DNA of 64,000 nucleotides from Bacteroidota bacterium (GTDB taxonomy: Bacteria; Bacteroidota; Ignavibacteria; UBA10030; UBA6906): NCBI GenBank assembly GCA_035687895.1, contig DASRUE010000064.1:7281-71280 (forward strand), read 5' to 3'. The notes below the pieces were generated by a model. The model was not told the origin of the DNA, ran no database searches, and saw only the letters and a program-made list of their open reading frames with translations. Numbering within the stretch: position 1 is the stretch's first letter; each line of letters opens with the position of its first letter. Shown in pieces: positions 12,205 through 64,000 of this stretch. Made by a program: the position numbers and the translations under genes.

Positions 12205-12210
12205 CACTAT

Positions 12211-48898: not shown

Positions 48899-49804
48899 AT
48901 GAAATCACTGCAGAGTGACATACTCAGAACGCTGCTGTACTACGACATCTGGCATTATCCATTGACGGCCACTGAGTTGTTCACATTTCTCCCTGTCAAC
49001 TCGATGACATTTGAGGAGTTTGACAAATATTTGCGTGAGCAGGCGACAGGCGATGACATACTCTTCGACCAGGGCTATTACTTCGTCCGGGGAAAGGGTC
49101 CCGGCATCGTCCCACAGCGACGTGAGAAAGAGCATCACGCACAGCTGATGTGGCGAATGGCAGCCATCTCGATGCACATTATCAAGAGATTTCCATTCGT
49201 CAGAGGCGTGTGCGTGTCAGGCGACCTTTCCAAGAACGCAACCAACCGGAAGAGCGACGTGGATTTTTTTGTGATCACCGAACCAGGGCGACTCTGGATC
49301 ACACGCACACTCCTCATCCTCTTTAAGAAGGTCTTCCTTCTGAACAGCAAGAAATACTTCTGCCTGAACTATTTCGTGACAACGGACCATCTCACACTTG
49401 ACGATCACAATGTCTTCCTTGCCACCGAGATTGCACACTTGAAGCCTTTGTACAACTCAGGTTTGTTCAGGAAGTACTTCGCAAGCAATCAGTGGATCAG
49501 AGACTACTTCCCAAATTACGACCTCCGGCATCTACAATTTCCTGTAGCAAACGAGCGTCAGAGCCTCTTGCAGCGTCTGCTGGAGATTCCTTTCTCATTC
49601 ATTGCGGCTGACACGCTCGATACATACCTGATGAACAAGATGGCTGCAATCTGGGCCAGGCGCTATCCGGAGTTTGACGATACCACACGACGGAAAATTT
49701 TCCGCTGTACGAAGAGTGAATCCCGTGCTTATGTTGGCAACTTTGAAGAGAAAATTCTAGCCATTTACGAGCAGAAGCTCCGCGAATTCGGTGTTTCTGC
49801 TTGA
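48899..49804 (+). CDS. Hypothetical protein with nucleotidyltransferase-fold motif
   Basis: 301 aa; GVCVSGDLSKNATNRKSDVDFFV resembles the GS..x..DxD NTase signature; first gene of the same-strand block. Confidence 0.4.
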   Translation: MKSLQSDILRTLLYYDIWHYPLTATELFTFLPVNSMTFEEFDKYLREQATGDDILFDQGYYFVRGKGPGIVPQRREKEHHAQLMWRMAAISMHIIKRFPFVRGVCVSGDLSKNATNRKSDVDFFVITEPGRLWITRTLLILFKKVFLLNSKKYFCLNYFVTTDHLTLDDHNVFLATEIAHLKPLYNSGLFRKYFASNQWIRDYFPNYDLRHLQFPVANERQSLLQRLLEIPFSFIAADTLDTYLMNKMAAIWARRYPEFDDTTRRKIFRCTKSESRAYVGNFEEKILAIYEQKLREFGVSA

Positions 49805-49834
49805 GGATTCAACCAAAAGGACAGAAGAAGGAGA

Positions 49835-51364
49835 GTGATTCATGATTCCTGGGCCTCGGTATCCTGGCGGCAATTTCGTCAACCCATGACCGACATCCTC
49901 TTCACCCATTCATACTTCCTCCACTTTGATCCGAAGGAGTACAAGGCGATGATGCCCTACCCTCCGCTCGGAACGCTCTATGCCGCGAGCGTAGCACGCG
50001 CAGCAGGCTATTCGGTTCAATTGTTCGACAGCATGCTTGCAACCAACGAAGACGAGATCCTCCCCGTTATCCGTGAACACCGTCCAAAAGTAGTTGTCAT
50101 CTACGATGATGATTTCAACTACCTCACCAAGATGTGTCTGACGCGCATGCGTGAAGCAGCGTTCACAATGGCCTCTCTTGCAAAGAGGGAAGGTTGCACG
50201 GTAATCGTTCATGGCTCTGATGCTGTTGACCATCTCGACAAGTACTTCAACCACTCCGTTGACTTCGTCATCTGTGGAGAAGGAGAACAGACGCTCCGTG
50301 AGACACTTGACCACCTCCTGAAAAATGGGAAGGCCAAGGAAGAGATTCCGGGTCTTGCATACATGAGCATGGGGACTGGTGCCACGAACACGGCGCGGCC
50401 TGTGGTTAAGGATCTCGATGCTCTCCCCTTTCCTGCGTGGGACATTGTCGACATTGAGCGATACCGGAGCGTCTGGAAGAGACGACATGGTTTTTTTTCA
50501 GTCAACATGGTCACCACGCGCGGATGCCCATTCCACTGCAATTGGTGTGCAAAGCCAATCTACGGTCAGGTGTACAGTTGTCGTTCGCCACGCAATGTGG
50601 TGGAGGAGATGCAATGGCTGAAACGGACCGTGAAACCCGACCACATCTGGTTCTGCGATGACATTTTTGGACTGAAACCAGGCTGGGTTGCCGCGTTCAG
50701 CAAAGAAGTGATAGATCAGGATGCGATCATTCCCTTCAAATGCCTGGCACGTGTTGACCTCCTGCTGAAGGAAGACGCCGTTGAGAATCTCCGGAAGGCG
50801 GGATGCACAACGGTGTGGGTAGGCGCAGAATCCGGTTCACAAAAGATTCTCGACGCGATGGACAAAGGCACAACAGTGAAGCAAATCTACGAGGCATGCC
50901 GACTTCTGAAGATGGCTGGAATATGTGTCGGCTTTTTTCTGCAGTACGGCTATCCGGGCGAAACCCGAGATGACATTAAACTGACGCTGAAGATGGTAAA
51001 GGAATGCATGCCCGATGAGATTGGTGTGTCTGTTTCCTACCCACTGCCGGGCACGAAGTTCTTTGAGAACGTGAAGACCCAGATGGGAGCGAAGCACAAC
51101 TGGACGGACAGCCAGGATCTCGCAATGATGTTTGGCGGTACCTACCACCCAAACTTTTACCGTGTGTTGCACAAAGTGACGCATAAGAAATTCCGGATCT
51201 GGAAGAGTACAGAACTCTTACAAAAAACGATGAAGCAACCCTGGCGATTCACCCCTCAGAATGTGAGGAGCCTGGCGGCGGGCATATACCATCGCTTCAC
51301 GTTGGCCGGAATAGAGAGCGAGATGGGTGAATTTCTGGCGGAACACAAGCATGCCGACTCTTGA
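49835..51364 (+). CDS. B12-binding-domain radical SAM protein (paralog 1)
   Basis: 509 aa; N-terminal cobalamin-binding Rossmann-like region (PYPPLGTLYAASVARAAGYSVQLFD) and CxxxCxxC (TTRGCPFHCNWCAKP); SD-like AAGGAGAG 6 nt upstream; alternative ATG at 49886. Confidence 0.8.
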   Translation: MIHDSWASVSWRQFRQPMTDILFTHSYFLHFDPKEYKAMMPYPPLGTLYAASVARAAGYSVQLFDSMLATNEDEILPVIREHRPKVVVIYDDDFNYLTKMCLTRMREAAFTMASLAKREGCTVIVHGSDAVDHLDKYFNHSVDFVICGEGEQTLRETLDHLLKNGKAKEEIPGLAYMSMGTGATNTARPVVKDLDALPFPAWDIVDIERYRSVWKRRHGFFSVNMVTTRGCPFHCNWCAKPIYGQVYSCRSPRNVVEEMQWLKRTVKPDHIWFCDDIFGLKPGWVAAFSKEVIDQDAIIPFKCLARVDLLLKEDAVENLRKAGCTTVWVGAESGSQKILDAMDKGTTVKQIYEACRLLKMAGICVGFFLQYGYPGETRDDIKLTLKMVKECMPDEIGVSVSYPLPGTKFFENVKTQMGAKHNWTDSQDLAMMFGGTYHPNFYRVLHKVTHKKFRIWKSTELLQKTMKQPWRFTPQNVRSLAAGIYHRFTLAGIESEMGEFLAEHKHADS

Positions 51365-51485
51365 ATAGCCACTTCCGATGCCTAATGGGGAGAATGAACC
51401 TGCTAACGTTTCAGAGGAGCGCTGAGGTCCCCGTCTACCGCTGCCCTTCGATATATCTTTCGAACTCGCACAGGAGGGCTAGCGA

Positions 51486-51773
51486 ATGAGCGCGTTCGTA
51501 ATTGTCGACATCAATGTCACTGATCCGGTCGGCTACGAGGAGTACAAGAAAACTGCGGCGCCTACCGTTGCCATGTATGGTGGCAAGTATCTGGCGAGGG
51601 GTGGCCGGACTGAAGTACTGGAAGGTAACTGGATTCCCAATCGATTAGTCATCCTGCAATTCGGAAGTGTTGACCAAGCGAAACAGTGGCTGGATTCGGC
51701 AGAATACAGAGCAATTAAACACCTCCGGCACCAAAATGCCGAATCGAATATGGTCGTCGTTGAAGGAGTGTAA
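51486..51773 (+). CDS. DUF1330 family protein
   Basis: 95 aa; MSAFVIVDINVTDPVGYEEYKK...VILQFGSVDQAKQW typical of DUF1330 (dimeric alpha+beta barrel); AGGAGG SD upstream. Confidence 0.55.
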   Translation: MSAFVIVDINVTDPVGYEEYKKTAAPTVAMYGGKYLARGGRTEVLEGNWIPNRLVILQFGSVDQAKQWLDSAEYRAIKHLRHQNAESNMVVVEGV

Positions 51774-51825
51774 CATCATCATCGTTGCTGCGACTCATGC
51801 ATAACACATAGAAAGGAGAGCCATC

Positions 51826-52095
51826 ATGGATGACAAAGTCCGCTGTCAGAGTTGCGGGATGCCACTCTCGGACGTGTTTGGGAATTACGGCACAAACAAG
51901 GATGGATCGGATAATACCGACTATTGCGCTTTTTGTTTCAAGGATGGAGCATTCACAAATCCGCGTCAGACAATGGACGAGATGATCAAGAGTTCCATTC
52001 TGAATATGACAAAGGACCTCCGGATGCCAGGAGAAAAGGCCATTCAACTGGCGAACGAGATTATCCCGAAACTGAAGCGATGGAAAAAGCCGTAA
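51826..52095 (+). CDS. Zinc-ribbon domain protein
   Basis: 89 aa; CQSCGMP...CAFCF four-Cys ribbon; AAAGGAGAG SD upstream. Confidence 0.5.
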   Translation: MDDKVRCQSCGMPLSDVFGNYGTNKDGSDNTDYCAFCFKDGAFTNPRQTMDEMIKSSILNMTKDLRMPGEKAIQLANEIIPKLKRWKKP

Positions 52096-52135
52096 TGTAA
52101 ACAGGGGATCACTGGGTATTGATCTTTGTCCCTAA

Positions 52136-53572
52136 TTGGAAATCGCCAATGAGTGCCGTCTCAATGTCAAAGGTTCTGCATTGGATATTGTTCTGACACA
52201 CGGGTATTTTCTTCAGGAAGATGAGGCCGAGAAACGGATCATGAAACCGTATCCGACGCTCGGGATTCTTTACATCTCCGCGTACCTCAAATCCAAGGGT
52301 TTTCATGTAGAGGTTTTTGACTCGACATTCCAGTCGAAGAAGGCGTTCACCCGGTACCTTGCCGACACGCGGCCTTCCATCGTAGGCATTTACGTCAACT
52401 TGATGACAAAATTGAATGCCCTCTGGATGATTCGGGAATGCAAGGCACATGGTTGTACTGTGATCGTTGGTGGCCCGGAGATTCCGTACTATGGCGAAGA
52501 TTTTCTGAAACGCGGGGCGGATGTTGGCGTGATTGGTGAGGGTGAGCTGACGCTTCAAGAGTTGATCCCCCATCTCCAGAAGTCCGGCGCCAGCGGGATG
52601 CAACATGTCAGCGGAATCGTCTACCGCGAAAACGACGGCACCATCATCCGGACACCAGAGCGGCAGTTGATTGCCGACCTCGATCAACTTCCCGATCCTG
52701 ACCGCGGCGCGATCGATCTTGCGCGCTACATACAGACATGGAAGACACACCATGGGAAGGGATCAGTCTCCCTCATTTGTGCACGAGGTTGTCCGTTTAC
52801 CTGTACGTGGTGCAGCCGCTCGGTATTTGGTGATACGCACCGTCGGCGTTCGCCGCAGCGTGTGGTGGATGAGATCGAGTTTCTTCTTGCCACGTACCAT
52901 CCCGACATGCTCTGGTTTGCCGATGACGTCTTCACCATCAACCACCGGTGGTTCTATCAGTTTCATGATGAAATGAAGCGACGGAACATCCGGATCCCCT
53001 TTGAGTGTATTTCCCGCGCAGACCGGCTGAACGAGGATATCCTGCAGAAGATGGCCGAACTTGGGTCATTCCGCATATGGTATGGCTCAGAAAGCGGTTC
53101 TCAGAAAATCCTCGATGCAATGCAACGACGGGTAAAGGTGGAACAAATCCAGACGATCACGCGCCTCGCTCAGAAATATGGCATCGAGGCTGGGCTATTT
53201 GTGATGCTTGGCTACCCCGGGGAAGAGATTGAAGACATCGACGCCACCATCGAACATTTGAAAGCGACGAAGCCCGATACATATCTCACCACGGTGGCCT
53301 ATCCAATCAAGGGCACGACGATGTACAACGAAGTTCGGGACCGTTTACTGGTCAATGACGATTGGGCAAGCAGCACCGACAGGAGCATCGACTTTAGAGG
53401 GAGACATTCCTCAAGGTTCTACTACTTTGCCACCCGGCATATGGTGAATGAGGTGCTGTTCTTTCGCCTCAGAAGCAACGGCCACCGGCCGTTCGGCCCC
53501 CGCCTCACATCGTTTGCTAAGTCCAAGCTTGCCCGGATAGGCATGCATCTGACAGAACGGACCCGCACCTGA
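52136..53572 (+). CDS. B12-binding-domain radical SAM protein (paralog 2)
   Basis: 478 aa; collinear with paralog 1 (KPYPTLGILYISAYLKSKGFHVEVFD; CARGCPFTCTWCSRS). Confidence 0.8.
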   Translation: MEIANECRLNVKGSALDIVLTHGYFLQEDEAEKRIMKPYPTLGILYISAYLKSKGFHVEVFDSTFQSKKAFTRYLADTRPSIVGIYVNLMTKLNALWMIRECKAHGCTVIVGGPEIPYYGEDFLKRGADVGVIGEGELTLQELIPHLQKSGASGMQHVSGIVYRENDGTIIRTPERQLIADLDQLPDPDRGAIDLARYIQTWKTHHGKGSVSLICARGCPFTCTWCSRSVFGDTHRRRSPQRVVDEIEFLLATYHPDMLWFADDVFTINHRWFYQFHDEMKRRNIRIPFECISRADRLNEDILQKMAELGSFRIWYGSESGSQKILDAMQRRVKVEQIQTITRLAQKYGIEAGLFVMLGYPGEEIEDIDATIEHLKATKPDTYLTTVAYPIKGTTMYNEVRDRLLVNDDWASSTDRSIDFRGRHSSRFYYFATRHMVNEVLFFRLRSNGHRPFGPRLTSFAKSKLARIGMHLTERTRT

Positions 53573-53575
53573 AGC

Positions 53576-54400
53576 ATGACAACCCGGGCACCAATGATCG
53601 AGCAACGGCCATTTGATGCAGCCGCGTCACTGTATGACCAGGAATTCGACGGCCATCGGCCTACTGTTCGCCTCCGACAGATTATGATGAAGTTGTTCCT
53701 CAGGTACTTTCCCATTCATAGCTCGCTTCTTGAATTGAATTGTGGCACTGGGACCGACGCCATTGCGTTGGCAAACCATCGTATGACCGTTTACGCGACA
53801 GATGATTCCCCAGCGATGGTATCATCTGCGCGGGAAAAAGTGTCGATGGCAGGACTTACCTCTCACATTATCGTTGACCGACTCGCTTTTGATCAACTGG
53901 ATCAACTCCGCGGCAAGGTGTTTGACGGAGTATACTCGAACTTTGGCGGACTGAACTGTGTCCCCGATCTCTCTTCCATCGCTGCTGATGTGAGCGTGCT
54001 ATTGAAGCCTGGTGGTTTCTTCGTCCTTTGCGTGATGACAGACTTCAGTATCTGGGAGACGACCGCGTTTCTCCTTCGGCTCCGATGGCAGAGTGCCTTC
54101 CGTCGTTTGCGGAGAGACGGCGTTGACGCAAGGGTTCATGAAACGACTCTCCGTATCTACTATCACTCTCCTGATTCTATCCGGTCAGCTTTCGAGCCAT
54201 GGTTCGAGCTGGTCGAGATGGGCGGGCTGAGTGTTTTCACTCCCCCACCCGGCGCAACAAAAGCGAACAGAGTGCTTCGCCCCATCATCCCCTTGCTGGA
54301 CCTTCTCGACAACGCTGTGTATCGCTGGTATCCCTTCCGTCGCATTGGGGACCATTGCTATATCGTCATGAGACGCACTACGCGGGAGAGTCTGGCATGA
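53576..54400 (+). CDS. Class I SAM-dependent methyltransferase (paralog A)
   Basis: 274 aa; motif I LELNCGTGTDAIALA and motif post-I/II LKPGGFFVL; stop overlaps the next start (ATGA). Confidence 0.75.
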   Translation: MTTRAPMIEQRPFDAAASLYDQEFDGHRPTVRLRQIMMKLFLRYFPIHSSLLELNCGTGTDAIALANHRMTVYATDDSPAMVSSAREKVSMAGLTSHIIVDRLAFDQLDQLRGKVFDGVYSNFGGLNCVPDLSSIAADVSVLLKPGGFFVLCVMTDFSIWETTAFLLRLRWQSAFRRLRRDGVDARVHETTLRIYYHSPDSIRSAFEPWFELVEMGGLSVFTPPPGATKANRVLRPIIPLLDLLDNAVYRWYPFRRIGDHCYIVMRRTTRESLA

Positions 54401-55572
54401 ATGTCAACACCATGCGGGCAATAGACAGGTATGTCGGCATTCCACTCTGCTGGGCAACGGGGATCTGGAGCAATCTCTTCAGGCACAGGAAACAACTTGC
54501 GCCAGAGCAGTGGAGATCCGTTCTCGTAATGAAGTTTTTCGGGATGGGAAGTGTTCTGCTTTCATCGTCCTTTGTTTCGGCGCTCCATGAACGGCTTCCA
54601 AACGTGAAGATCATTTATCTGACCTTTGGTGCTAATCTGGAAATGCTTGAGATGCTGCCTCAGGTATCATTCCGACTAGCGATCTCCACATCTTCCCTGC
54701 ATCAGTTCATCTATGATTCCTTTAGGGCCTGGCGATTGATCCAGAGGGAATCGGTGGATGCTACATTCGATCTGGAGTTCTTCTCAAAATTTTCGACCCT
54801 TGTGTCATTCCTGTCCAGAGCACCTGTTCGAGTTGGCTATGCCTTACCTACTTACTGGCGGCGAATGCATCTGACCGTTCCCGTCCCTTTCGGGCATAAC
54901 AAGCACGTGACCCAAGTATTCCTCAGTCAGCTGCAAGCTGTCGGGCTCCCGCCGCAGCAAACCGCTTCGGTCACATCTCTACAAGCCTCTCTGATAATCA
55001 ATGCGTGCATGGAACGCGCTCTCAATCTTCAGTCGAATGGATTTGAGATCATTGCCGTGAACATTAACGCAGGGCCCACATCCCTGGAGCGTCGATGGCC
55101 CCCCGGGCGTTTCATAGAGGTGTGTCGTGTGCTTCTCGCCGAGAGGCCGGGCGTGCGATTCGTATTCACGGGAAGCACAGAAGAAAGGGGCTACGTCGAA
55201 GAAGCGCTACGTCACGATGTTGGCGTTCAGCACAACTCCATCAACGCTGCAGGACTCCTTTCTCTTGGCGAACTGATAGCGTTGCTTGAACGATCCTCTC
55301 TTCTTCTCACCAATGATAGCGGCCCCATGCACATTGCGGCCGCGATGGGCAGGCCTGTTGTGGCACTCTTTGGACCCGAGTCGCCCGCATTTTATGGCCC
55401 TTCCGCTCAATCCTCTCTTACCATCTACAAAGCGATCTCCTGCAGCCCGTGTTTGAATGCTTACAATGCCAAACTCTTTGTCTGCCCGTTTGATGCCAGA
55501 TGTATGAAGGAGATCTCAATAGCCGAAGTGCTTGCTGCCGTTCGCTCTCTCCGTCCAGCCCTCGTCACGTAA
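54397..55572 (+). CDS. Glycosyltransferase family 9 (heptosyltransferase-like)
   Basis: Start reassigned to MNVNTMRAIDRY (the ORF-track upstream extension overlaps the methyltransferase); GT9 motifs VLVMKFFGMGSVLLSS and TNDSGPMHIAAAMGRPVVALFGPE. Confidence 0.75.
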   Translation: MNVNTMRAIDRYVGIPLCWATGIWSNLFRHRKQLAPEQWRSVLVMKFFGMGSVLLSSSFVSALHERLPNVKIIYLTFGANLEMLEMLPQVSFRLAISTSSLHQFIYDSFRAWRLIQRESVDATFDLEFFSKFSTLVSFLSRAPVRVGYALPTYWRRMHLTVPVPFGHNKHVTQVFLSQLQAVGLPPQQTASVTSLQASLIINACMERALNLQSNGFEIIAVNINAGPTSLERRWPPGRFIEVCRVLLAERPGVRFVFTGSTEERGYVEEALRHDVGVQHNSINAAGLLSLGELIALLERSSLLLTNDSGPMHIAAAMGRPVVALFGPESPAFYGPSAQSSLTIYKAISCSPCLNAYNAKLFVCPFDARCMKEISIAEVLAAVRSLRPALVT

Positions 55573-55577
55573 AACCC

Positions 55578-56837
55578 ATGCGGATCTTTCCCCGGCCACT
55601 GTTCGGTTACCTCGCTCTTCTTGTGCTTTTCGTGCTGGTTGTGTACCGCGGCGTTTTCCCCGCGTTCACTCAGATCGATACAGATTTTCCCAACTACTAT
55701 ACGGCCGCACGGATTGTCCTTGAACAAGGCGACGTCAACCGTTTGTACGACGATCAATGGTTCCAGGAACAGATCTCCGCCCACCGGATACAGGCAAAAG
55801 GAAAGTTCTCGCCATTTCCGCCAACCACCGCATTGTTGGCCACGCCGCTGGGCCTGGTGCAACCTCAGACGGCGTTGCGGCTCCTTACGTTAGTCAATCT
55901 GATTTGCGTTTCCATTTGCGTCATACTCCTCGCACAGGCAACATCGTTTGAGTTCCCCGATGTCGCCGTGTTCGTTCTTCTCGCTGGGGTTGGACTCATC
56001 AATTGTATTCGCTTCGGCCAGTGGTACATTGTTGTTGCGCTATCCATCATTGCAGGATATGTTCTCTATCAGCATGGTCGCTTCATTTTGTCGGGTATCT
56101 GTTTTGGTCTCTTTGTTCCAGTCAAGTATTTTCCCATTCTGTTTGTTCTTTATTTCGCAGCGCGCAAGGAATGGCGGCTGGTAGTGTCAGCAATCGCCAC
56201 CAGCATGCTACTGATCCTTGTAAGCCTGCTAGTATTGGGGTGGGAGATCCACTATGCATTTCTCACATCTGTCCTTGGCGATCATTTGCAATCCCGGTAT
56301 ACCTTGCAGAGTCCGTTTACAGGCACCTTCCAATCGTTCGATAGCCTACTTCATCAGCTTATGGTGTATGACCCCGAGCAGAACCCTCGTCCAGCGGTCC
56401 TCTCTGCAGACATGTTACCGGATGTCAAGTGGGGAATTGTCACCTTCCTTGTATTGGTGGCGCTTGTCTCCATCTTCAGGTCCCAAAGGCTCGGTGCTTC
56501 TGCGTCAGTCTCCTTATCCCTTTCGCTCTTGAGTGTTCTTGGTTTGCTGATTGCGCCAGGAGGGGCAACATACCACTTTGTCCTTCTCTGGCTCCCTTGT
56601 GCATTGCTATTGCAGTGGCTGGACAACACAGGACGGAATCGGCTTTTCCTTCTAACTCTCCTCATCTACGGGGCAATAGGATTCATCCCCTACAGCCTGT
56701 TCCACTCGTTCGAAGGTCGGGGCTGGCTGTCGGTCCTTGCTTTCCCGCGGCTATGCCTGATGATCCTCCTCTTCTTCGTTGCGGTAGTAACCATGTGGTT
56801 ACCCGCAACCAGGCAGCCTCTGGCACGTAATGTATGA
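55578..56837 (+). CDS. Polytopic membrane protein, DUF2029/GT87-like putative GT-C glycosyltransferase
   Basis: 419 aa; 10 or more transmembrane helices; first periplasmic loop with FPNYYTAARIVLEQGD...YDDQW resembling the DUF2029 family; start reassigned to MRIFPRPLFGY. Confidence 0.45.
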   Translation: MRIFPRPLFGYLALLVLFVLVVYRGVFPAFTQIDTDFPNYYTAARIVLEQGDVNRLYDDQWFQEQISAHRIQAKGKFSPFPPTTALLATPLGLVQPQTALRLLTLVNLICVSICVILLAQATSFEFPDVAVFVLLAGVGLINCIRFGQWYIVVALSIIAGYVLYQHGRFILSGICFGLFVPVKYFPILFVLYFAARKEWRLVVSAIATSMLLILVSLLVLGWEIHYAFLTSVLGDHLQSRYTLQSPFTGTFQSFDSLLHQLMVYDPEQNPRPAVLSADMLPDVKWGIVTFLVLVALVSIFRSQRLGASASVSLSLSLLSVLGLLIAPGGATYHFVLLWLPCALLLQWLDNTGRNRLFLLTLLIYGAIGFIPYSLFHSFEGRGWLSVLAFPRLCLMILLFFVAVVTMWLPATRQPLARNV

Positions 56838-56922: not shown

Positions 56923-58197
56923 ATGGGTACCTCCCTCAGCATGGGGTTTATTGTGTTCAGGATCGGTCTTCCTCTTGTGTTGTTGTTCATACAAATTGTG
57001 CTCTACCGTCGCACCATGCGGTGGCTCCGGCAGACATTTCCCTCCCGACCGGTTCTCCGCCACACGGCTCGAGGCATTTTCCTTCTTTTCAATCTCTCAC
57101 TTGCCTATGTCGTGTTCATGCACCCTCAGCTAGGAGGAGTTCCGGCATGGTTTATCTATGGCGCGGCCTATCCGTTTTTCATCTGGCACGGCGCAACGTT
57201 TTTCCTTGGTTTGGGGATTTTCATTGCCACGATCGTGAAAGCACCGTTCACTGTCCCGTTCTGGATTTCCAAACGAATTCCAGCCTCGAGGAAAAAGATC
57301 GAAGCAATAAGGGCGGTGCCATCGTTCCAACAATTCGATGTCTCCCGTCGAGTATTCCTGCGCCGCAGCATGTATGGCTTGACTGCCGCGTCGTTTGCTG
57401 GTACGGCGTACGGCATGCTGATCGAGAAGAACGACGTAGAGGTAAACGACGCGGAGTTTTTCATCCCGAATCTGCCACAGGAATTGGATGGTTTCACTAT
57501 CGCCCTCGCCAGCGACATCCACTCAAGTCTCTACATGACTAAGGAAGACATGCAGGAGTATGCACTTCGGATTAACGACATGAAGACGGACATGATTGCG
57601 GTGGTGGGTGACTTCGTCAACGGGGCGATTTCCGAAGTGTATCCGTTTGCGGAAGCCTTCGGCAGCCTCAGCGCGCCGCTCGGTGTGTACGGCGTGATGG
57701 GCAATCACGACTTCTACAATCCTGACCCTGACATGGTGGCAAAGGAGGTGGATGGGTGTGGCATCAAGTTGCTACGGGATGACAAAGTCATTGTCGAAAA
57801 GAACGGTGCGAAGTTCTACCTTATCGGAGTCGATGATGTTGGAAGGGCAAATACGGCAACGGTCAAGCTCGATGCTGCACTCAGGTCCACGCCGCTGAAG
57901 ATTCCGCGCATTCTTCTCTGCCATCGGCCGTACTACCTGCCGGAAGCATCGGAACGAAATATCGACCTGATGCTTAGTGGGCATACACATGGAGGACAAG
58001 TGGTGCTTGGACAGTTTGGCGATCTTGTTATTGCACCTGCTTCATTCGCCTCGCGCTACGTCTGGGGGAAGTACCGAATCGGCGATACGCATATGTACGT
58101 ATCCCGAGGAATTGGCACGGTTGGACTCCCAATCCGTTTGAACTGCCCGCCTGAGCTCACGCGAATCACACTGCGGAGTGCCATGCCTGCTATTTAA
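56923..58197 (+). CDS. Membrane-anchored metallophosphoesterase (calcineurin-like)
   Basis: 424 aa; four or more N-terminal transmembrane helices then MPP motifs LASDIHS, VVGDFVNG, GNHDFY, GHTHGGQ. Confidence 0.7.
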   Translation: MGTSLSMGFIVFRIGLPLVLLFIQIVLYRRTMRWLRQTFPSRPVLRHTARGIFLLFNLSLAYVVFMHPQLGGVPAWFIYGAAYPFFIWHGATFFLGLGIFIATIVKAPFTVPFWISKRIPASRKKIEAIRAVPSFQQFDVSRRVFLRRSMYGLTAASFAGTAYGMLIEKNDVEVNDAEFFIPNLPQELDGFTIALASDIHSSLYMTKEDMQEYALRINDMKTDMIAVVGDFVNGAISEVYPFAEAFGSLSAPLGVYGVMGNHDFYNPDPDMVAKEVDGCGIKLLRDDKVIVEKNGAKFYLIGVDDVGRANTATVKLDAALRSTPLKIPRILLCHRPYYLPEASERNIDLMLSGHTHGGQVVLGQFGDLVIAPASFASRYVWGKYRIGDTHMYVSRGIGTVGLPIRLNCPPELTRITLRSAMPAI

Positions 58198-58211
58198 GAT
58201 GCTGGCAGGTT

Positions 58212-59510
58212 TTGTCTATTCGTTCATCTCTCACCATCCCTTGTTTGTTCTTGACCTCCTCTCCTCCATCCAATGTCGTTGGAAGTCTTCTCCAATCATC
58301 CGCGATATACTTCCTCAGCTCAGTGTTCACCAACGGCGCGACGTTTCTCAACTCGATTGCCGTTTCATGGTACCTTGGCAAGGTGGGCTTGGGTGAATTC
58401 TCCCTCTGTCTAACAGCCGTCTTGATTGCTCTCCTTCTGTCGGACATGGGGTTGAACACAATCGTTTTGCGCGACTACTCTGGTAGAAATGAACCCGCCT
58501 CACCATCTCTCCGGTTTCTCTTGGGAATCAGAACTCTCGCCGCATCTGCAGTCACCGTTGTTATCATCGCGGTTGGTGTTTCGGTCTTTCAGGAGTCCGC
58601 GCCTCTCGTTGTCGCTGCATCCCTATTGATTTTGCCCCGTTCCATTTCCGGGGTGGCTGAGAGCTACCTGAAGGCGCGGATCCAACGGCGAACCGTCTTT
58701 GCTATCGCAATCGTTTCGTCCATCCTCCAGATCCTCTTAGTTTGGGAAGTGGCGGCTGGCGGCAACAGCCTTACCATGATCTTCTTTGTGCTGGCTGCAC
58801 TCGAATATGGGAAATCACTTATCCTCTTGCTCATCCTGCGGCCCACGCTCCAATCCCAAAACAACTCCGTTCCGATTCAGCAATCAGGTTTGAGATCTTT
58901 GCTTGTACAAGGACTTCCCTTCGCGATCATTGCCCTCCTTTCTCTTCTCGGTGAGCGCGCAGATCTCTTTTTCCTTGCCGCTCTACGAGGAGCGGCGGAG
59001 ACTGGAATCTACGCGGGCGCCGAGCGATTCCTTATGCTCGGTAACTTGTTTGCCTTCTCATTCTACGGCTCCGCCCTGCCTGTTTTCTCCTCGTTCCGGA
59101 GACAGGCTGATTATCGCGCCGTGGTGCGAAAGACACTCCTTTTCGCTCTCGTCCTTTCCTCCGGCGCGGCTTTCATACTCGGTGTTGGGGCCCGGTTGAT
59201 CATAGCTACGACTTTCCGCTTCGAGGAATCCGTCCTGCTGCTGCGGATACTTGCCGCCACCTTCCCTGGAATTGTCATCAACTCAATTCTAAGAATAGCC
59301 CTCTTCTCCGTTCAGCGGGAGCGCCCAGTGGCAACCGTGTTTGTCGTTGCCATTGCCCTGAATACAATCCTTAATCTCATATTCATCCCTCGTTTTGGTG
59401 CACTGGCCGCCGCCTTTATTGCCGTGGGTACAGAGTACGCAATTATGTTCGGACATTTGCGGTTGTACCTGTCCTTTGAACATGACAAGTGGCCATCTCG
59501 CAATTATTGA
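58212..59510 (+). CDS. Oligosaccharide flippase (Wzx/MOP superfamily)
   Basis: 432 aa; 12 or more predicted transmembrane helices and a Wzx-like N-terminal region; start codon uncertain (track uses TTG). Confidence 0.6.
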   Translation: MSIRSSLTIPCLFLTSSPPSNVVGSLLQSSAIYFLSSVFTNGATFLNSIAVSWYLGKVGLGEFSLCLTAVLIALLLSDMGLNTIVLRDYSGRNEPASPSLRFLLGIRTLAASAVTVVIIAVGVSVFQESAPLVVAASLLILPRSISGVAESYLKARIQRRTVFAIAIVSSILQILLVWEVAAGGNSLTMIFFVLAALEYGKSLILLLILRPTLQSQNNSVPIQQSGLRSLLVQGLPFAIIALLSLLGERADLFFLAALRGAAETGIYAGAERFLMLGNLFAFSFYGSALPVFSSFRRQADYRAVVRKTLLFALVLSSGAAFILGVGARLIIATTFRFEESVLLLRILAATFPGIVINSILRIALFSVQRERPVATVFVVAIALNTILNLIFIPRFGALAAAFIAVGTEYAIMFGHLRLYLSFEHDKWPSRNY

Positions 59511-59583
59511 CTTTGAGAAGAGTTTCAAACATCTTGCTTTACAATCAATAGTAGTTCATGTTTTTCCGTTATCCACGAAGACA

Positions 59584-61053
59584 ATGATCCTCCTGGTCAA
59601 TCCCAAAGCAACCTCGTGGCGATACCGCATCCCGCTTTCAGTGCTCGCAATTGGTGCTTCCCTAGAAGGAAGATATCCGTATGAGATCGTTGATGGCAAT
59701 GTTGACAGGAAAATATTCGAGACACTTCCTCGACTGATCAAGGAAAAGAACATTCGGTACGTTGGGTTTACGGTTATGCCCGGGCCTCAACTGATGCAGG
59801 CAATCAGGCTTTCCAAGATGGTCCGAGAGCAGTTTCCTACCGTGAAGATAATCTGGGGTGGCTATTTCGCGTCTCTACATACCACCGTCATCTTGCACTC
59901 CGATTGTGCGGACTTCGTGATTAGAGATCAGGGTGATTATTCATTTCGGCAGCTTATAGATGCGCTCGAAGATGGTGGCTCGCTCTCCTCAGTCAAGGGT
60001 CTCTCCTTTGACCACGGGACCATTCAGCACAATGAAAAGCAGGAGTTGATCGACCCAAATCAACTTCCCGCTCTTCCCTACCACAAAGTTCATCTTCCAC
60101 CGTACATAGGAAGGACCTATGTTGGAACCAGGACGATCAACTACCATTCAAGCGTCGGCTGTCCGTTTCTCTGCGGTTTCTGTGCGGTTGCGGCAGTGTA
60201 CAAAGCGCGCTGGCTGGGACTGGCCCCTGAGAAGATCGTTGCAGACCTTCTTTGGTTCAAGAGGGAGCATGGAGTGAACGCTGTTGAGTTTCACGATAAC
60301 AACTTCTTCACCTCAGAAAAGCGCACAAGGGAGTTCGCCGAACGCATTAACGGGCATGAGATAAGCTGGTGGGGAGAAGCGCGCCCCGATACGATGCTGA
60401 ACTACAGTGACAGCACGTGGCGTCTTATGAAGCAGGCAGGCTGCAAGATGATTTTCTTTGGGGCCGAGTCAAGTTCTCAAAAGGTTCTTGACCTGATGGA
60501 AAAAGGTGGTACCCAGACACCCGATACCGTGCTCGACCTCGCTGACCGAATGAAGGGATATAGTATTGTCCCGGAGTTTTCTTTTGTTCTTGGTAGTCCA
60601 ACTGAAACTATGGAACAGGATCTTGAAAGGGATATCCAGTATATCAAGAGAATTAAGGAGATAAGCTCTGAAAGCGAAATTATTATCTATGTTTATTCAC
60701 CTGTCCACTTTGAAGAATCGGAGCTCTACCACAGTGCACAGACCCATGGTTTTGCGTATCCTAAGACCCTTGATGAATGGCTCCTTCCAGAGTGGCAACT
60801 ACATGATCTCCGGAAGAACCCCGTCACGCCCTGGCTAACGCCAAAAGTGCTTACGCGTATCAAGGACTTTGAGCGCGTGCTCCATGCCAGGTACCCGACA
60901 AACGCCGATTTAAGACTGCGAAAAGTCCAACGGACAATTCTCAAATCTCTGGGCACGTGGCGATACAAGCTGTCTATTTACTTCGCTCCGTACGAGATCG
61001 CGGTGGCCCAACGCATGTTCCGGTACCGGCAGCCTGAGGTAGAAGGATTCTGA
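59584..61053 (+). CDS. B12-binding-domain radical SAM protein (paralog 3, divergent)
   Basis: Start at MILLVNPKA (the upstream ORF-track extension overlaps the flippase); cobalamin-binding region (VGFTVMPGPQLMQAIRLSKMVREQFPTVKIIWGGYF) and CxxxCxxC (SSVGCPFLCGFCAV). Confidence 0.8.
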   Translation: MILLVNPKATSWRYRIPLSVLAIGASLEGRYPYEIVDGNVDRKIFETLPRLIKEKNIRYVGFTVMPGPQLMQAIRLSKMVREQFPTVKIIWGGYFASLHTTVILHSDCADFVIRDQGDYSFRQLIDALEDGGSLSSVKGLSFDHGTIQHNEKQELIDPNQLPALPYHKVHLPPYIGRTYVGTRTINYHSSVGCPFLCGFCAVAAVYKARWLGLAPEKIVADLLWFKREHGVNAVEFHDNNFFTSEKRTREFAERINGHEISWWGEARPDTMLNYSDSTWRLMKQAGCKMIFFGAESSSQKVLDLMEKGGTQTPDTVLDLADRMKGYSIVPEFSFVLGSPTETMEQDLERDIQYIKRIKEISSESEIIIYVYSPVHFEESELYHSAQTHGFAYPKTLDEWLLPEWQLHDLRKNPVTPWLTPKVLTRIKDFERVLHARYPTNADLRLRKVQRTILKSLGTWRYKLSIYFAPYEIAVAQRMFRYRQPEVEGF

Positions 61054-61077
61054 GTTAATATCTGGCCTTTCCACTAC

Positions 61078-61881
61078 ATGGAATTGAAAGCAAGCACCAT
61101 AGAGTTTCATAATTCGATCGCCAATGAATATGACGCTCTCTTCAGCGCTAGCGGGACCGGCAATTGGATGCGCAGGCGTGTCCAGGAACAACTGCTGGAC
61201 ATTTTCAAGCCGGGTCAACGTATTCTTGAGATCAATTGTGGAACGGGAACAGACGCGATCGTTCTCGGAAAGGCTGGAATCCGTGTCCATGCTACAGATA
61301 TCTCTCCTCGTATGGTACAGATGACCGCCGAGAAGGTAGTTTCAGAAGGTCTCACGACGCTTGTGACTACTGACGTCATGGACGCTGACGACCCGAGCAT
61401 TCTCGCCAGTCCTCTCTTTGATGGAGCATTCTCGAACTTCAACGGATTGAATCACGTCGATGATCTGGAGCGGACCATGCATCGGCTCTCGAATCTGCTG
61501 AAACCAGGCGGGCGCGTGCTCTGTGTTCTCCTGAACCCTTTCTGTCTATGGGAAGTCCTCTATCTCATAACAACACTCCAATTGCCGAAGGCGTGGCGGC
61601 GCGCCTTTCGGCGGGGAGAAGAATTGGTCAAGGAACGTGTGCCAATGAACTTCCGACTCTATTCTCCGCGTCAGTTCAGCCGGATTGTGAATCGGGATTT
61701 TCTGGTGAGGCGTGTCAGTGGCCTCGGCATTTTCCTCCCTCCAGCGGGTTTTCCTCGTTTGTACGTGAGCCACGTTCCGTTACTGCGAAGACTCGATGTT
61801 GTGGAGAGAATTTTGTCGAGCCTTTATCCATTCTTTTTGATTGGCGACCATTTCATGGTTGAGCTGGAGAAACGAAAATGA
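61078..61881 (+). CDS. Class I SAM-dependent methyltransferase (paralog B)
   Basis: 267 aa; motif I LEINCGTGTDAIVLG and LKPGGRVL; collinear with paralog A including the C-terminal AWRRAFRRGEE / SAFRRLRRDGVD block. Confidence 0.75.
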   Translation: MELKASTIEFHNSIANEYDALFSASGTGNWMRRRVQEQLLDIFKPGQRILEINCGTGTDAIVLGKAGIRVHATDISPRMVQMTAEKVVSEGLTTLVTTDVMDADDPSILASPLFDGAFSNFNGLNHVDDLERTMHRLSNLLKPGGRVLCVLLNPFCLWEVLYLITTLQLPKAWRRAFRRGEELVKERVPMNFRLYSPRQFSRIVNRDFLVRRVSGLGIFLPPAGFPRLYVSHVPLLRRLDVVERILSSLYPFFLIGDHFMVELEKRK

Positions 61882-62444
61882 AAATCCTGAAGGAACTCAT
61901 TCGCAGGATCCGCTTCAAGCTCTATGCGTCTGAGTACATGCGAGTAGCATACCTTCATCCTCGATCAGTTGTATTGGTCACAGTACGACACGAAGGGGCA
62001 GAAAATCTCCTCCCTCTCGACTGGCATCTCCCACTTTCTTTTTTTCCAAAACTATACGGAATCAGTCTTGAGTCCAGGAACTACTCGAGTGAATTGATCC
62101 GGAAATCCGGAGCATTCGCGGTCAATTTCATGCCGTATGAGTTCGAGCCGGCAATGCTCGCCGCCGGAAGAACCTCGGGCCGCACTGCAGATAAATTTGC
62201 CCTCACTAGTCTCTCCCGAAAAGAGGGTGAGGCACTTCCCCTGCCGATTCTTGTTGATGCGATGGGTGTCCTTGAATGCAAGGTGGTTCAGACCGTCGAA
62301 ACAGGCGATCACACCTTGTTTGTCGGAAAGGTGGTCCATGAGATGCTTGCCCCGAAGAACCAACAAAGGCAAGTGTATCATGTGACCGATGCCGTCAAGG
62401 GCAAAGTGATTCGAGACGACACCGGCTCAGGAGGCGGCGTATGA
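61878..62444 (+). CDS. Flavin reductase-like FMN-binding protein
   Basis: 188 aa; split-barrel flavin-reductase fold (SVVLVTVRHEGAENLLPLDWH...FAVNFM); 4-nt overlaps on both sides. Confidence 0.7.
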   Translation: MKILKELIRRIRFKLYASEYMRVAYLHPRSVVLVTVRHEGAENLLPLDWHLPLSFFPKLYGISLESRNYSSELIRKSGAFAVNFMPYEFEPAMLAAGRTSGRTADKFALTSLSRKEGEALPLPILVDAMGVLECKVVQTVETGDHTLFVGKVVHEMLAPKNQQRQVYHVTDAVKGKVIRDDTGSGGGV

Positions 62445-63211
62445 GCATCGATACACAAACGGAGGCACTGCTTTCCACTCCAAGCGATGTTCCGCTTCCC
62501 GACCTTCGCGCCCCCCGCTATCCACGCCTGCTGCGGAAAGGTTTTTCGTCGCTCCTCTTTCGTCTTCACGTGAAGCCTCGGATTGAGCGCACGGACAAGG
62601 TAGTGCTCGAAGGGTTGTCGCTTTCCATCCCCCCTACGGTATTCCATCCACGGTTCTACTATACCAGCCGCTTTCTCGCACACTTTGTCAAACAGATGGA
62701 CTTGGCGAATCGGTCCGTGCTCGAGGTGGGCTGCGGCTCGGGTTTCGTCTCACTCGTGGCTGCATCGCGGGGAGGGCTCATCACTGCGGTGGATATCAAT
62801 GAGGCGGCCGTTACAGCAACGAAAGACAACGCAAAGTTGAATGGGTTCCAGATCAGGGTTCTGCACTCAGATCTTTTTGAGCATTTGCAGGGGGAGCGTT
62901 TCGATCATATCGTCATCAATCCACCCTTCTACGACGGAGATCCGTCTCATATCGCTGAACATGCCTGGAAAGCCGGCGAGAAGAATTCACTCATCCATCG
63001 ATTTGCCGCTTCCGCTACACGGTTTCTTGCCCCCGGAGGTTCGATCATTGCAGTCCTCTCCACTGATACTGAGATGTCGCAAGTCCTTCGCATTTTTAAA
63101 GAGAATGGCTTTTCCATGAGTTGTCTCGCCTCGAAGCGGAAGCTCTTCGAGACACTTTTCATCTTTCAGTTTATCCCCATCACCACCGTTGCACCTGAAC
63201 ATGAACGTTAG
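62441..63211 (+). CDS. HemK/PrmC-type (NPPF motif) SAM-dependent methyltransferase
   Basis: 256 aa; motif I VLEVGCGSGFVSL and catalytic IVINPPFY characteristic of N-directed (N5-Gln / N6-Ade type) methyltransferases. Confidence 0.65.
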   Translation: MSIDTQTEALLSTPSDVPLPDLRAPRYPRLLRKGFSSLLFRLHVKPRIERTDKVVLEGLSLSIPPTVFHPRFYYTSRFLAHFVKQMDLANRSVLEVGCGSGFVSLVAASRGGLITAVDINEAAVTATKDNAKLNGFQIRVLHSDLFEHLQGERFDHIVINPPFYDGDPSHIAEHAWKAGEKNSLIHRFAASATRFLAPGGSIIAVLSTDTEMSQVLRIFKENGFSMSCLASKRKLFETLFIFQFIPITTVAPEHER

Positions 63212-64000
63212 CGCGTTCTTGAACACTCTTGGCTCCCGTGCTCGTACGTTACCCATCTGCATCCTTTATGTCACGGAGGGCTGTAATCTCCGCTGCATAA
63301 CCTGCTCCTACCGGAATCCCCTCCCCAACGAACTCGCGCTTCGGGAGATCACCACACTGGCACACCAACTGAAAGGTGTCGGCCTTCGCCATATTGTCTA
63401 CTCCGGCGGTGAGCCGCTCATGCGAAGGGATTTTCCTGAGATATGTGAGACCTTCAGGCGGCTTGGCATAAAGCAAACACTTCTCACCAACGGGCTGCTG
63501 TTGGAGAAGCGCCTGGAAGAAATCGCCGGACACTTCGCAGAGATCATTGTGTCGGTGGATGGGCCGGATGCGAACGTGCATAACGCGATTCGCGGCATAG
63601 ACTCGTTTGACCACATCGTCCGCGGGATACGGGCTGCCATTGCACATCCCCGTCGGTGTCCACTTTCCATCCGGACTGTGGTTCAGAAGAGAAACTTTCG
63701 CACCCTTGGTGACATGATTGCCTTTGCGGAATCGCTCGGCACAACCAGGATTTCGTTTCTCGCAGCAGATGTTCTTTCTGAAAGTTTCGGGAGGGAGACC
63801 CGAGGGCCTGTCGTCCCGGATAACGAAATCATGCTGTCAGTGGATGAAACATATGAACTCCGGCGACTCGTGGAACGATGGACCGTGGAATACCGTGACG
63901 CCTTTTTGAACGGGTTCGTTACGGAACCACCCGAGAAGTTGTTTCACCTCGTTCAGTATTTCGAGGCATTGGCTCTCAAGGCCTCCTACCCTTCGACACT
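63201..64000 (+). CDS. Radical SAM protein (MoaA/PqqE-like core), 3'-truncated by the window end
   Basis: Not in the supplied ORF list because it runs off the window. ATG at 63201 opens a frame with CNLRCITCSY (CxxxCxxC), a GGEP SAM-binding motif (VYSGGEPLMRRD) and a TIM-barrel-like continuation. It overlaps the preceding methyltransferase by 11 nt. Confidence 0.75.
   Translation, partial: MNVSAFLNTLGSRARTLPICILYVTEGCNLRCITCSYRNPLPNELALREITTLAHQLKGVGLRHIVYSGGEPLMRRDFPEICETFRRLGIKQTLLTNGLLLEKRLEEIAGHFAEIIVSVDGPDANVHNAIRGIDSFDHIVRGIRAAIAHPRRCPLSIRTVVQKRNFRTLGDMIAFAESLGTTRISFLAADVLSESFGRETRGPVVPDNEIMLSVDETYELRRLVERWTVEYRDAFLNGFVTEPPEKLFHLVQYFEALALKASYPST

Follow-up and report, generated by a model that had tools for sequence, protein, structure and literature searches.

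A conserved gene block of cobalamin-binding radical SAM enzymes, methyltransferases and glycosyltransferases in Ignavibacteria: a candidate envelope glycoconjugate pathway

Radical S-adenosylmethionine (SAM) enzymes that depend on cobalamin are among the largest reservoirs of enzyme chemistry still to be characterised. The examples known from the cell envelope concern hopanoids, archaeal tetraethers and ladderanes, and not bacterial surface glycans. Here, we describe a gene block found in a window of 64,000 nucleotides (the whole stretch analysed; contig DASRUE010000064.1, positions 7,281 to 71,280) from the assembly GCA_035687895.1 of a Bacteroidota bacterium placed in the Ignavibacteria (UBA10030; UBA6906). 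The block occupies positions 48899-64000 of the window and consists of 15 consecutive plus-strand genes, numbered g1 to g15 along that strand (Table 1). It combines a nucleotidyltransferase-fold protein, three radical SAM proteins with a cobalamin (B12)-binding domain, methyltransferases, glycosyltransferases and a flippase. The cluster is real, conserved across phyla and uncharacterised, and most of its carriers found so far are uncultured.

In the open reading frame (ORF) listing, no competing long minus-strand ORF is present within 48899-64000, and the gene junctions, read directly from the sequence, span -11 to +125 nt. ATGA overlaps join g6 to g7 (54397-54400), g12 to g13 (61878-61881) and g13 to g14 (62441-62444), while g14 and g15 overlap by 11 nt (63201-63211) and the remaining gaps measure 3-125 nt. 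These data bear out an earlier inspection of the DNA without database searches (the sequence-only reading), which had reported a block of same-strand genes with tiny or overlapping junctions, cut by the window edge. A 97-kb contig found by exact-protein look-up (ena:ERZ27254861:k141_225637) completes g15 and adds g16, a second GT87 gene; the block stops ∼1.5 kb beyond the window edge and comprises 16 genes in total. We found no promoter signal above chance in the divergent region 48739..48898 and no operator-like inverted repeat upstream of g1 that might serve as a target of its winged helix. Moreover, promoter-like and terminator-like sites inside the block were no more numerous than in shuffled sequence. 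Because these scans stayed at chance level, we infer the operon status from gene packing, which suggests that the genes are co-transcribed. No cobalamin or other riboswitch was detected in the block with Rfam.

Table 1. Features of the gene block and of the region preceding it
Feature	Position	Strand	Assignment	Basis
Divergent region	48739..48898		Intergenic region between the PASTA gene (minus strand) and g1; presumed block promoter region	ORF map
g1	48899..49804	+	Winged-helix and predicted Pol-beta-type nucleotidyltransferase-fold protein, 301 aa; founding member of an unannotated family	
g2	49835..51364	+	B12-binding radical SAM protein, orthogroup a	Pfam Radical_SAM 74 bits, B12-binding 32.0; motif CPFHCNWC
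g3	51486..51773	+	DUF1330 protein, lineage-specific accessory	Pfam 111 bits
g4	51826..52095	+	Zn_ribbon_2 protein, lineage-specific accessory	Pfam 92 bits
g5	52136..53572	+	B12-binding radical SAM protein, orthogroup b; 36% identity to g2	Pfam; motif CPFTCTWC
g6	53576..54400	+	Class I SAM methyltransferase, paralog of g12	Pfam Methyltransf_25/11/12
g7	54397..55572	+	GT9-family (heptosyltransferase-like) GT-B glycosyltransferase	Pfam Glyco_transf_9 (PF01075) 93.9 bits (cutoff 22)
g8	55578..56837	+	GT87-family (ex-DUF2029) polytopic GT-C glycosyltransferase, ~9 transmembrane segments	Pfam GT87 (PF09594) 96.5 bits (cutoff 25); hydropathy
g9	56923..58197	+	Membrane-anchored metallophosphoesterase, YaeI/LpxG-like	Pfam Metallophos; N-terminal transmembrane segments
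g10	58212..59510	+	Wzx-type flippase (Polysacc_synt), accessory	Pfam 63.7 bits; at least 8 transmembrane segments
g11	59584..61053	+	B12-binding radical SAM protein, orthogroup c, usually paired with g14	Pfam; motif CPFLCGFC
g12	61078..61881	+	Class I SAM methyltransferase, paralog of g6	Pfam
g13	61878..62444	+	Flavin reductase-like protein, accessory, candidate electron supplier	Pfam Flavin_Reduct 107 bits
g14	62441..63211	+	HemK2/MTQ2-family methyltransferase, NPPF motif	Pfam MTS 82 bits
g15	63201..64000	+	Radical SAM/SPASM protein without B12 domain; truncated by the window (full length 343 aa, end 64232)	Translation, contig extension, Pfam
g16	64241-65485 (outside window)		Second GT87 protein, 414 aa	Pfam GT87 81.8 bits (cutoff 25)

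All the domains that the sequence-only reading had named were recovered with Pfam, the B12-binding domain of g2 being borderline. The proteins g2, g5 and g11 carry a CxxxCxxC motif within PF04055, which they match with 74, 70 and 43 bits, respectively (cutoff 29.5). For the N-terminal B12-binding domain, PF02310, the cutoff of 32.1 is exceeded by g5 (53.8) and g11 (39.2) and marginally missed by g2 (32.0). Motif and domain therefore assign the three proteins, as putative members, to the class B (cobalamin-dependent) radical SAM enzymes.

Such genes could encode known enzymes (BchE, BchQ/R, HpnP/R/J or HemN) in an otherwise ordinary block, and the sequence-only reading had itself raised bchE/bchQ/bchR, hpnP/hpnR and an oxygen-independent coproporphyrinogen oxidase as identities that would speak against a new pathway. 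We judged named identities by the curated NCBIfam cutoffs. BchE (TIGR02026) is indeed the top NCBIfam match for g2, g5 and g11, but with 146, 165 and 101 bits against a cutoff of 481. HpnJ, the second-best match for g2 and g11 and among the top matches for g5, scores 97-136 bits (cutoff 578), HpnR 59-104 (650), the ladderane-lipid radical SAM model TIGR04072 69-128 (360), PhpK 78-130 (600), the Sden_1168 P-methylase 91-104 (575) and AprD4 42-73 (500). The HemZ/HemN-type and coproporphyrinogen oxidase models give 24-36 bits, their cutoffs being 321-653. The four radical SAM proteins of the block all fall short of every named family's cutoff, and identities as BchE, BchQ/R, HpnJ/P/R, the ladderane lipid enzyme, PhpK, MgmA, BzaD, AprD4 or HemN/Z were rejected. 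Furthermore, no bch, hpn/shc (squalene-hopene cyclase) or heme genes are annotated in the window or its extension, and the carriers belong to non-phototrophic lineages. We consider the known-enzyme explanation effectively refuted.

One annotation source points the other way. The Joint Genome Institute (JGI) pipeline calls the relatives of g2 in Steroidobacteraceae 'anaerobic magnesium-protoporphyrin IX monomethyl ester cyclase' (L004 17546-19012; L091 10001-11461; L092 10001-11455). Since the g2 family scores ∼146 bits against the BchE cutoff of 481, this name is probably a systematic misannotation in non-phototrophs. Among solved structures, all matches are remote: g2 is closest to MgmA (9ccb, 65 bits), AprD4 and OxsB, g11 to AprD4 and TokK, and g15 to BlsE (63 bits). 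The entry 9ccb is MgmA, a protein glutamine C-methyltransferase (PMC11796369).

The first gene of the block belongs to a family that domain databases leave unnamed. g1 matches no Pfam or NCBIfam model, and its sequence has no match in the PDB below E = 0.4. Its structure model, in which an N-terminal winged helix precedes an aminoglycoside-nucleotidyltransferase-like fold, is confident for the nucleotidyltransferase part and contains invariant catalytic carboxylates. It carries the Pol-beta signature hG[GS]-x(9-13)-D-x-[DE] and a third carboxylate on an alpha-beta-alpha-beta-alpha-beta core, the invariant residues being S107-G108, D120-x-D122 and E177. With Foldseek, the model retrieved MNT, ANT, AadA and GlnE-type adenylyltransferases, all weakly, and family members match NTP_transf_2 (36/40) and Polbeta (31/40) below threshold. 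From signature and model, g1 is predicted to be a nucleotidyltransferase of the Pol-beta superfamily. Its homologs number 897 in a 90%-clustered collection, where all are labelled 'hypothetical'; clustering at 50% identity leaves 5,983 representatives of the family at E ≤ 1e-3, or 1,056 at E ≤ 1e-30. An involvement in anti-phage defence was rejected, as PADLOC yielded only generic methyltransferase, viperin-core and radical SAM matches for the block and nothing for g1.

Gene fusions provide a functional context for this family. g1-type domains are fused to a Bac_transf phosphoglycosyl transferase (P0464), to a GT4 glycosyltransferase (P0427) and to a class I methyltransferase (P0474), and a GT87-methyltransferase fusion (P0220) is present among the 561 homologs of g8. 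The Bac_transf-g1 fusion (L093 5236-6837) sits in a classical GT4/GT4/Wzy_C/epimerase polysaccharide locus; no radical SAM gene was found on its 8-kb contig. Together, the four fusions place the g1 family, the methyltransferase family and GT87 in lipid-linked glycan assembly.

Copies of g1 also occur on their own. In Candidatus Kryptonium/Kryptoniota, homologs with 39-41% identity (L053 10001-10918; L057 10001-10924) lie directly downstream of a putative uvrC, recognised from its N-terminal sequence only. These lone copies have no B12-radical SAM partner, which gives the g1 family at least one further role beyond the cluster. The metagenome-assembled genome (MAG) MFD05942.bin.1.467 contains two g1 paralogs (L013, L033), one in a full cluster and the other (54% identity) with no radical SAM gene within 10 kb downstream.

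The remaining proteins belong to recognised families. The paralogs g6 and g12 share 34% identity, and g12 has only subthreshold UbiE/CpaM-like matches in NCBIfam. g14 passes the HemK2/MTQ2 model TIGR00537 (109.3 bits, cutoff 87), and its translation contains the INPPFY motif. Its sequence assigns g7 to GT9; the best equivalog is heptosyltransferase II (103.5 against 134.6 bits), and the WaaC, WaaF and WaaQ cutoffs are not reached. Hydropathy predicts 7-9 segments in g8 and g16, for which the PimE equivalog NF009915 is far from reached (24 against 413 bits). For g9, YaeI (118 against 188 bits) and LpxG (95 against 350) both remain below cutoff. Around residues 140-170 of g9, after 3-4 transmembrane segments and just ahead of the phosphoesterase domain, a twin-arginine-like SRRVFLRRS is followed by a mildly hydrophobic stretch, MYGLTAASFAGTAYG. 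The position of SRRVFLRRS before the last hydrophobic segment and the positive-inside pattern hint weakly at a periplasmic catalytic domain. Starts are ambiguous for g2 (49835/49886), g10 (58212/58323) and g11 (59482/59584), and the products that the metagenome gene caller gives for these genes (492, 395 and 523 aa, respectively) differ from both the longest ORFs and the most parsimonious starts; for g2 and g10 the gene caller takes 49886 and 58323, respectively.

The conservation of the block was assessed by scanning one genome per GTDB species, which gave 182 loci with a g1 relative. The best 80 of the 182, all from MAGs, were examined; they are labelled Ignavibacteriota/Ignavibacteria, Bacteroidota, Kryptonia, Flavobacteriales, Fluviicola, Aquimarina, Ohtaekwangia and Chitinophagaceae. 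Gene presence was scored by tblastn with the window proteins. A g2-type B12-radical SAM gene lies ≤1.2 kb downstream of g1 in 62 of the 68 loci with enough sequence for this comparison. Downstream sequence of at least 9.5 kb was available for 45 loci. Of these, 41 contain g2, 34 a g6/g12-type methyltransferase, 33 at least two and 21 at least three B12-radical SAM genes; GT9 is present in 20, g14 in 19, GT87 in 16 and the metallophosphoesterase in 15. The genes g3 (DUF1330) and g4 (zinc ribbon) are absent from the 80 related loci, g13 is nearly confined to the lineage of the window, and Wzx, the flavin reductase, DUF1330, the zinc ribbon, the SPASM radical SAM protein and the second GT87 are either restricted to this lineage or seldom found.

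Because these accessories are rare or unique among related loci, the 15-gene block resolves into a conserved core of about eight genes with variable additions. The core, comprising the nucleotidyltransferase-fold protein, the three B12-radical SAM orthogroups, a class I methyltransferase, the HemK2-like methyltransferase, a GT-B and a GT-C, is found in dozens of Ignavibacteriota and Bacteroidota MAGs. The expectation that the block would be syntenic as a unit was thus borne out for related genomes, but for this core and not for all 15 genes. Ignavibacteria-type loci have the order g1-g2-(small variable gene)-g5-methyltransferase-GT9-GT87-metallophosphoesterase-g11. In L006, L007 and numerous further MAG loci of this type, it occupies one and the same position on the chromosome, flanked by PASTA/rpe on one side and cdd/tdk on the other. 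In four Ignavibacteria-type loci an MsbA-like ATP-binding cassette (ABC) exporter replaces Wzx. Distant Flavobacteriales loci keep g1-g2-methyltransferase-g5-methyltransferase and a g11-g14 pair, and g11 adjoins g14 in many distant loci. The partners of the Flavobacteriales core are a GT4 and a different GT-C-like polytopic protein of 484 aa, GT4 replacing the GT9 of g7 in other lineages. Some of these loci also contain Wzy_C, Wzz, a Wzx-like protein, or a pair formed by YceI and a DUF5777 barrel.

The association is not restricted to these lineages. Starting from g8 homologs, we reached loci in Steroidobacteraceae (Gammaproteobacteria) and found radical SAM genes there. These loci encode orthologs of six window genes: g2 (45-46% identity), g5 (50-54%), g11 (34-35%), g6 (36%), g15 (37%) and g8 (40-47%). 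Directly after the radical SAM genes, in place of g1, lies a nucleotidyltransferase of PF14907 (NTP_transf_5), and the loci also contain two GT4, an amidohydrolase, a PMT_2 GT-C, YceI, an HprK-like/ScmC gene and sugar-nucleotide enzymes. That a nucleotidyltransferase, the same three B12-radical SAM orthogroups, the same methyltransferase, a GT-B and a GT-C occur together in two phyla is the strongest evidence for a joint function. A remote homology of g1 to the PF14907 protein is not supported: hhalign gave a probability of 0.2%, with only the D-x-D strand aligned. The two nucleotidyltransferases may be analogous replacements. The HprK-like/ScmC P-loop protein that adjoins the proteobacterial cluster (L091 8848-9897; L092 8807-9985; L004 16336-17364) is encoded divergently and has no counterpart in the window.

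A further protein recurs beside the cluster in both phyla. YceI-like genes were seen in L063 (∼17118-18700), L070, L077 (18796-19689) and L087, and in L004 (14332-14931) and L092 (6819-7424); in Flavobacteriales they are accompanied by the DUF5777 beta-barrel. The YceI family binds polyisoprenoids, and its recurrence might be a sign that a lipid carrier or a transport step is involved.

The surroundings of the block in the window are those of an ordinary chromosome. Divergent from g1 and on the opposite strand lie the PASTA-domain gene, rpe, an AsnC regulator, an ammonium transporter gene (Amt) and glnA. After g16 and a gap of 70 nt come genes for cytidine deaminase (cdd), thymidine kinase (tdk), a nupC-like nucleoside transporter and a PNP-family phosphorylase. 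Housekeeping genes fill the remainder of the window; there, Rfam identified a tmRNA (11835-12207, tag peptide ADYNYALAA) and a tRNA-Lys(CTT) (8854-8927), both unrelated to the block. The cdd, tdk, nupC-like and PNP genes are syntenic only in Ignavibacteria-type loci, like the unrelated rpe and PASTA genes, and absent from distant loci; we treat them as backbone neighbours and rejected a functional link.

The block might not represent one system. It might instead consist of at least two independent modules, the radical SAM and methyltransferase genes making a soluble small molecule, possibly nucleoside- or phosphonate-like, and the others an ordinary envelope polysaccharide, brought together by chance or by genome streamlining. 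Gene content is indeed modular and variable between relatives, some loci having the radical SAM/methyltransferase core without GT87, GT9 or the metallophosphoesterase. In addition, BlsE, the best solved match of g15, is an enzyme of a nucleoside antibiotic pathway, and the cluster abuts nucleoside-salvage genes in Ignavibacteria. However, these neighbours are lost outside Ignavibacteria-type loci, and neither a phosphoenolpyruvate (PEP) mutase nor a nucleoside-biosynthesis gene is present. Radical SAM and glycosyltransferase genes alternate along the block, and stop codons overlap with the start codons of the next gene. Moreover, the two kinds of gene are again found together in Flavobacteriales and Gammaproteobacteria, where the GT-B and GT-C partners are not orthologous, and the fusions tie the g1, methyltransferase and GT87 families together and to glycan enzymes. 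Separate modules are therefore, in our view, quite improbable.

We propose, with a probability of roughly 0.55, that the block encodes one undescribed pathway that radically modifies, probably by C-methylation, a lipid-linked envelope glycoconjugate, which is then flipped and finished by periplasmic GT-C enzymes. Our data directly show the domain identities, the tight packing, the conservation of the core across two phyla and the fusion of the g1 family to glycan-assembly enzymes; beyond these, we infer a substrate, an order of steps, a methylation chemistry, a topology and co-transcription. The product would be either a glycolipid or a lipid-linked glycan, distinguished by multiple radical B12-dependent modifications.

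On the cytoplasmic side of the inner membrane, a lipid-linked acceptor would receive a sugar from a GT-B enzyme, which is GT9 in this block and GT4 in other lineages, and g1 would transfer a nucleotidyl group, or a nucleotide-activated group, onto an intermediate. The B12-radical SAM proteins g2, g5 and g11, presumably non-redundant, and the SPASM protein g15 would functionalise unactivated carbons, most likely by C-methylation; a sugar rearrangement of the HpnJ/Cds kind is the alternative. The class I enzymes g6 and g12 and the HemK2-like g14, as an amide or amine N-methyltransferase, would add methyl groups to heteroatoms (O- or N-methylation), with the flavin reductase g13 as a possible source of reducing equivalents. 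The product would be flipped by Wzx, or by an ABC exporter in some relatives, and transferred or extended on the periplasmic side by the GT87 enzymes g8 and g16. Finally, the metallophosphoesterase g9 might trim a phosphate, pyrophosphate or nucleotide handle.

Several observations weigh against this proposal. Wzx is present in just two of the 45 related loci, and many loci keep the radical SAM/methyltransferase core without GT9, GT87 or the metallophosphoesterase. The Kryptonia carry g1 homologs without any radical SAM gene. For both g2 and g14, the closest relatives with a characterised function have protein substrates: MgmA, the closest solved relative of g2, modifies protein, and g14 belongs to a protein-glutamine methyltransferase family. 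The best NCBIfam matches of the B12-radical SAM proteins, BchE and HpnJ, are non-methylating enzymes, and the promoter and terminator scans are uninformative on operon structure. Finally, no initiating phosphoglycosyl transferase, polyprenyl-phosphate sugar synthase or sugar-nucleotide synthesis gene was found in the cluster of the window, so that the lipid acceptor and the GT-C donor must come from elsewhere.

The two functional claims of the sequence-only reading stand in part. Its lipid-linked glycan assembly is strengthened by the co-occurrence of GT-B and GT-C genes with the radical SAM/methyltransferase core across phyla and by the fusions of g1 to a phosphoglycosyl transferase, a GT4 and a methyltransferase, one of them in a Wzy-type locus, but the flipping step by Wzx is poorly conserved. 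Its radical methylation is matched by three B12-radical SAM proteins, but methylation as such is deduced from superfamily membership, and the best NCBIfam matches do not methylate.

The same enzymes might instead target the hydrocarbon portion of a membrane lipid, introducing methyl branches or rings as HpnP/HpnR, Gmm and GrsA/B do, with the glycosyltransferases adding a head group only, to give a methyl-branched glycolipid. The B12-radical SAM enzymes listed for primary envelope lipids all act on lipid carbons (PMC13459092), the ladderane-lipid model TIGR04072 is matched with 118-128 bits, although below threshold, and the YceI-like protein recurs by the cluster in Flavobacteriales and Steroidobacteraceae. 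However, the NCBIfam cutoffs of the lipid radical SAM enzymes are all widely missed, and the g1 fusions join it to sugar-transfer enzymes. In addition, genes for a prenyltransferase, a fatty-acid or polyketide synthase or an acyltransferase are missing from the core, the sole acyltransferase being found in L051. We consider a modification of the lipid chain unlikely.

A peptide or protein substrate was also considered, as in a proteusin-like ribosomally synthesised and post-translationally modified peptide (RiPP) or a system for post-translational modification. C-methylation of residues would then fall to the B12-radical SAM enzymes, N-methylation of Gln/Asn amides to the HemK2-like enzyme, cross-linking or epimerisation to the SPASM protein, and glycosylation of the product to the glycosyltransferases. 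The relationship of g2 to the glutamine C-methyltransferase MgmA and the match of g14 to the HemK2/MTQ2 protein methyltransferase model are in line with such a role, as are the resemblance of the radical SAM core of g15 to sactipeptide and other RiPP maturases and the ABC exporters of some relatives. The proteobacterial version of the cluster adjoins HprK-like/ScmC and NTP_transf_5 genes, which are typical of RiPP cassettes. However, no conserved precursor ORF was found, as the clustering of small ORFs across the 80 loci gave shadow ORFs only, and Pfam detected no RiPP recognition element (RRE) or PqqD domain in the window proteins. GT9, GT87, GT-C, Wzx, Wzy and Wzz are out of keeping with the logic of known RiPP pathways, and the g1 family occurs in fusions with a phosphoglycosyl transferase and with GT4. 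This makes a peptide or protein substrate rather improbable.

If the envelope glycoconjugate pathway that we favour is extended to all carriers, the cluster might define a widespread class in Ignavibacteriota, Bacteroidota and Steroidobacteraceae. In this class, several B12-radical SAM enzymes, for which a new nucleotidyltransferase family (g1, with PF14907 in its place in Proteobacteria) would do the priming, would introduce C-methyl groups into a lipid-linked sugar or rearrange it, leading to a surface glycolipid or glycan not seen before, heavily C-, N- and O-methylated. We advance this broader view tentatively, as a possibility that falls short of probable. The link of three B12-radical SAM orthogroups with GT-B, GT-C and exporters in two phyla points to an unrecognised surface decoration in abundant soil, sediment and freshwater lineages. 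If this is true, the product could be used as a lipid or glycan biomarker, and B12-radical SAM enzymology would gain several new reactions. The cluster also offers a functional context for the g1 family (∼6,000 clusters) and flags a probable systematic misannotation of the g2 family as BchE.

A comparison with known systems agrees with the view of the sequence-only reading that no characterised system combines these parts. Our literature search on this gene combination found nothing relevant, and recent reviews of B12-radical SAM and lipid-modifying radical SAM enzymes describe no such system (including PMC13459092). Among the closest precedents are the hopanoid side-chain tailoring enzymes HpnI-HpnK-HpnJ and the archaeal calditol synthase Cds: a glycosyltransferase attaches a sugar to a membrane lipid, and the lipid-linked sugar is then remodelled by a radical SAM enzyme (PMC13459092). 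The present block shares with them the pairing of glycosyltransferase and radical SAM enzyme, presumably on a lipid-linked sugar, and HpnJ is among its best NCBIfam matches. However, the HpnJ cutoff is far off, shc and hpn genes are missing, and three B12-radical SAM proteins are accompanied by a nucleotidyltransferase, GT-C enzymes, a flippase and three SAM methyltransferases. The C-methyltransferases GenK and GenD1 and the dehydratase AprD4 of aminoglycoside pathways are likewise B12-domain radical SAM proteins acting on sugars, and for both g2 and g11 AprD4 ranks among the nearest solved structures. These matches are remote (35-59 bits), the AprD4 cutoff is missed and aminoglycoside genes are absent, whereas our cluster is oriented towards membrane and export. 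The ANT(4'), LinB, AAD(9) and MNT-type nucleotidyltransferases share 10-16% identity with g1, with no significant sequence match, and g1 has the additional N-terminal winged helix. In contrast to resistance and toxin-antitoxin nucleotidyltransferases, g1 stands in a biosynthetic context, and PADLOC found nothing for it.

In fosfomycin synthesis, the cytidylyltransferase Fom1 precedes the B12-radical SAM C-methyltransferase Fom3 and the metal-dependent phosphodiesterase FomD, a nucleotidyl handle being added before the methylation and removed later. By analogy, g1, g2/g5/g11 and g9 might play corresponding roles; we cite this pathway as a precedent and claim no membership in it. No PEP mutase was found among the annotated genes of the window and its extension, nor any phosphonate gene, and the PhpK and Sden_1168 cutoffs are missed, so that the block does not match a phosphonate pathway of the fosfomycin or phosphinothricin tripeptide (PTT) type. 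In addition, the predicted fold of g1 is Pol-beta and not MobA-like, and g9 is membrane-anchored. The block also differs from a RiPP cluster, for which a conserved precursor gene across the 80 loci and a PqqD/RRE domain are lacking.

Two further comparisons concern envelope glycoconjugates. In the mycobacterial phosphatidylinositol mannoside/lipomannan (PIM/LM) pathway, the GT4 enzymes PimA and PimB' act first, and flipping is followed by the GT87 enzyme PimE. Our block resembles it in the proposed succession of a cytoplasmic GT-B acting on lipid, a translocation and a periplasmic GT87, g8 and g16 both passing the Pfam GT87 model, but the PimE equivalog is missed and the cluster contains no inositol-lipid genes. 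To our knowledge, PIM synthesis involves no radical SAM or methylation chemistry. With Wzx/Wzy O-antigen and capsule loci, the block shares Wzx and a GT-B; Wzy_C and Wzz occur in some distant relatives, and the g1 family is fused to an initiating transferase in such a locus. The cluster of the window, however, has Wzx only, with no Bac_transf/Glycos_transf_4, Wzy or Wzz, and we know of no description of B12-radical SAM enzymes as a component of Wzx/Wzy loci. The parts of the block all come from known superfamilies, and a succession of cytoplasmic assembly, flipping and periplasmic GT-C transfer would be a known kind of pathway; what is new is the triad of B12-radical SAM enzymes and the g1 nucleotidyltransferase.

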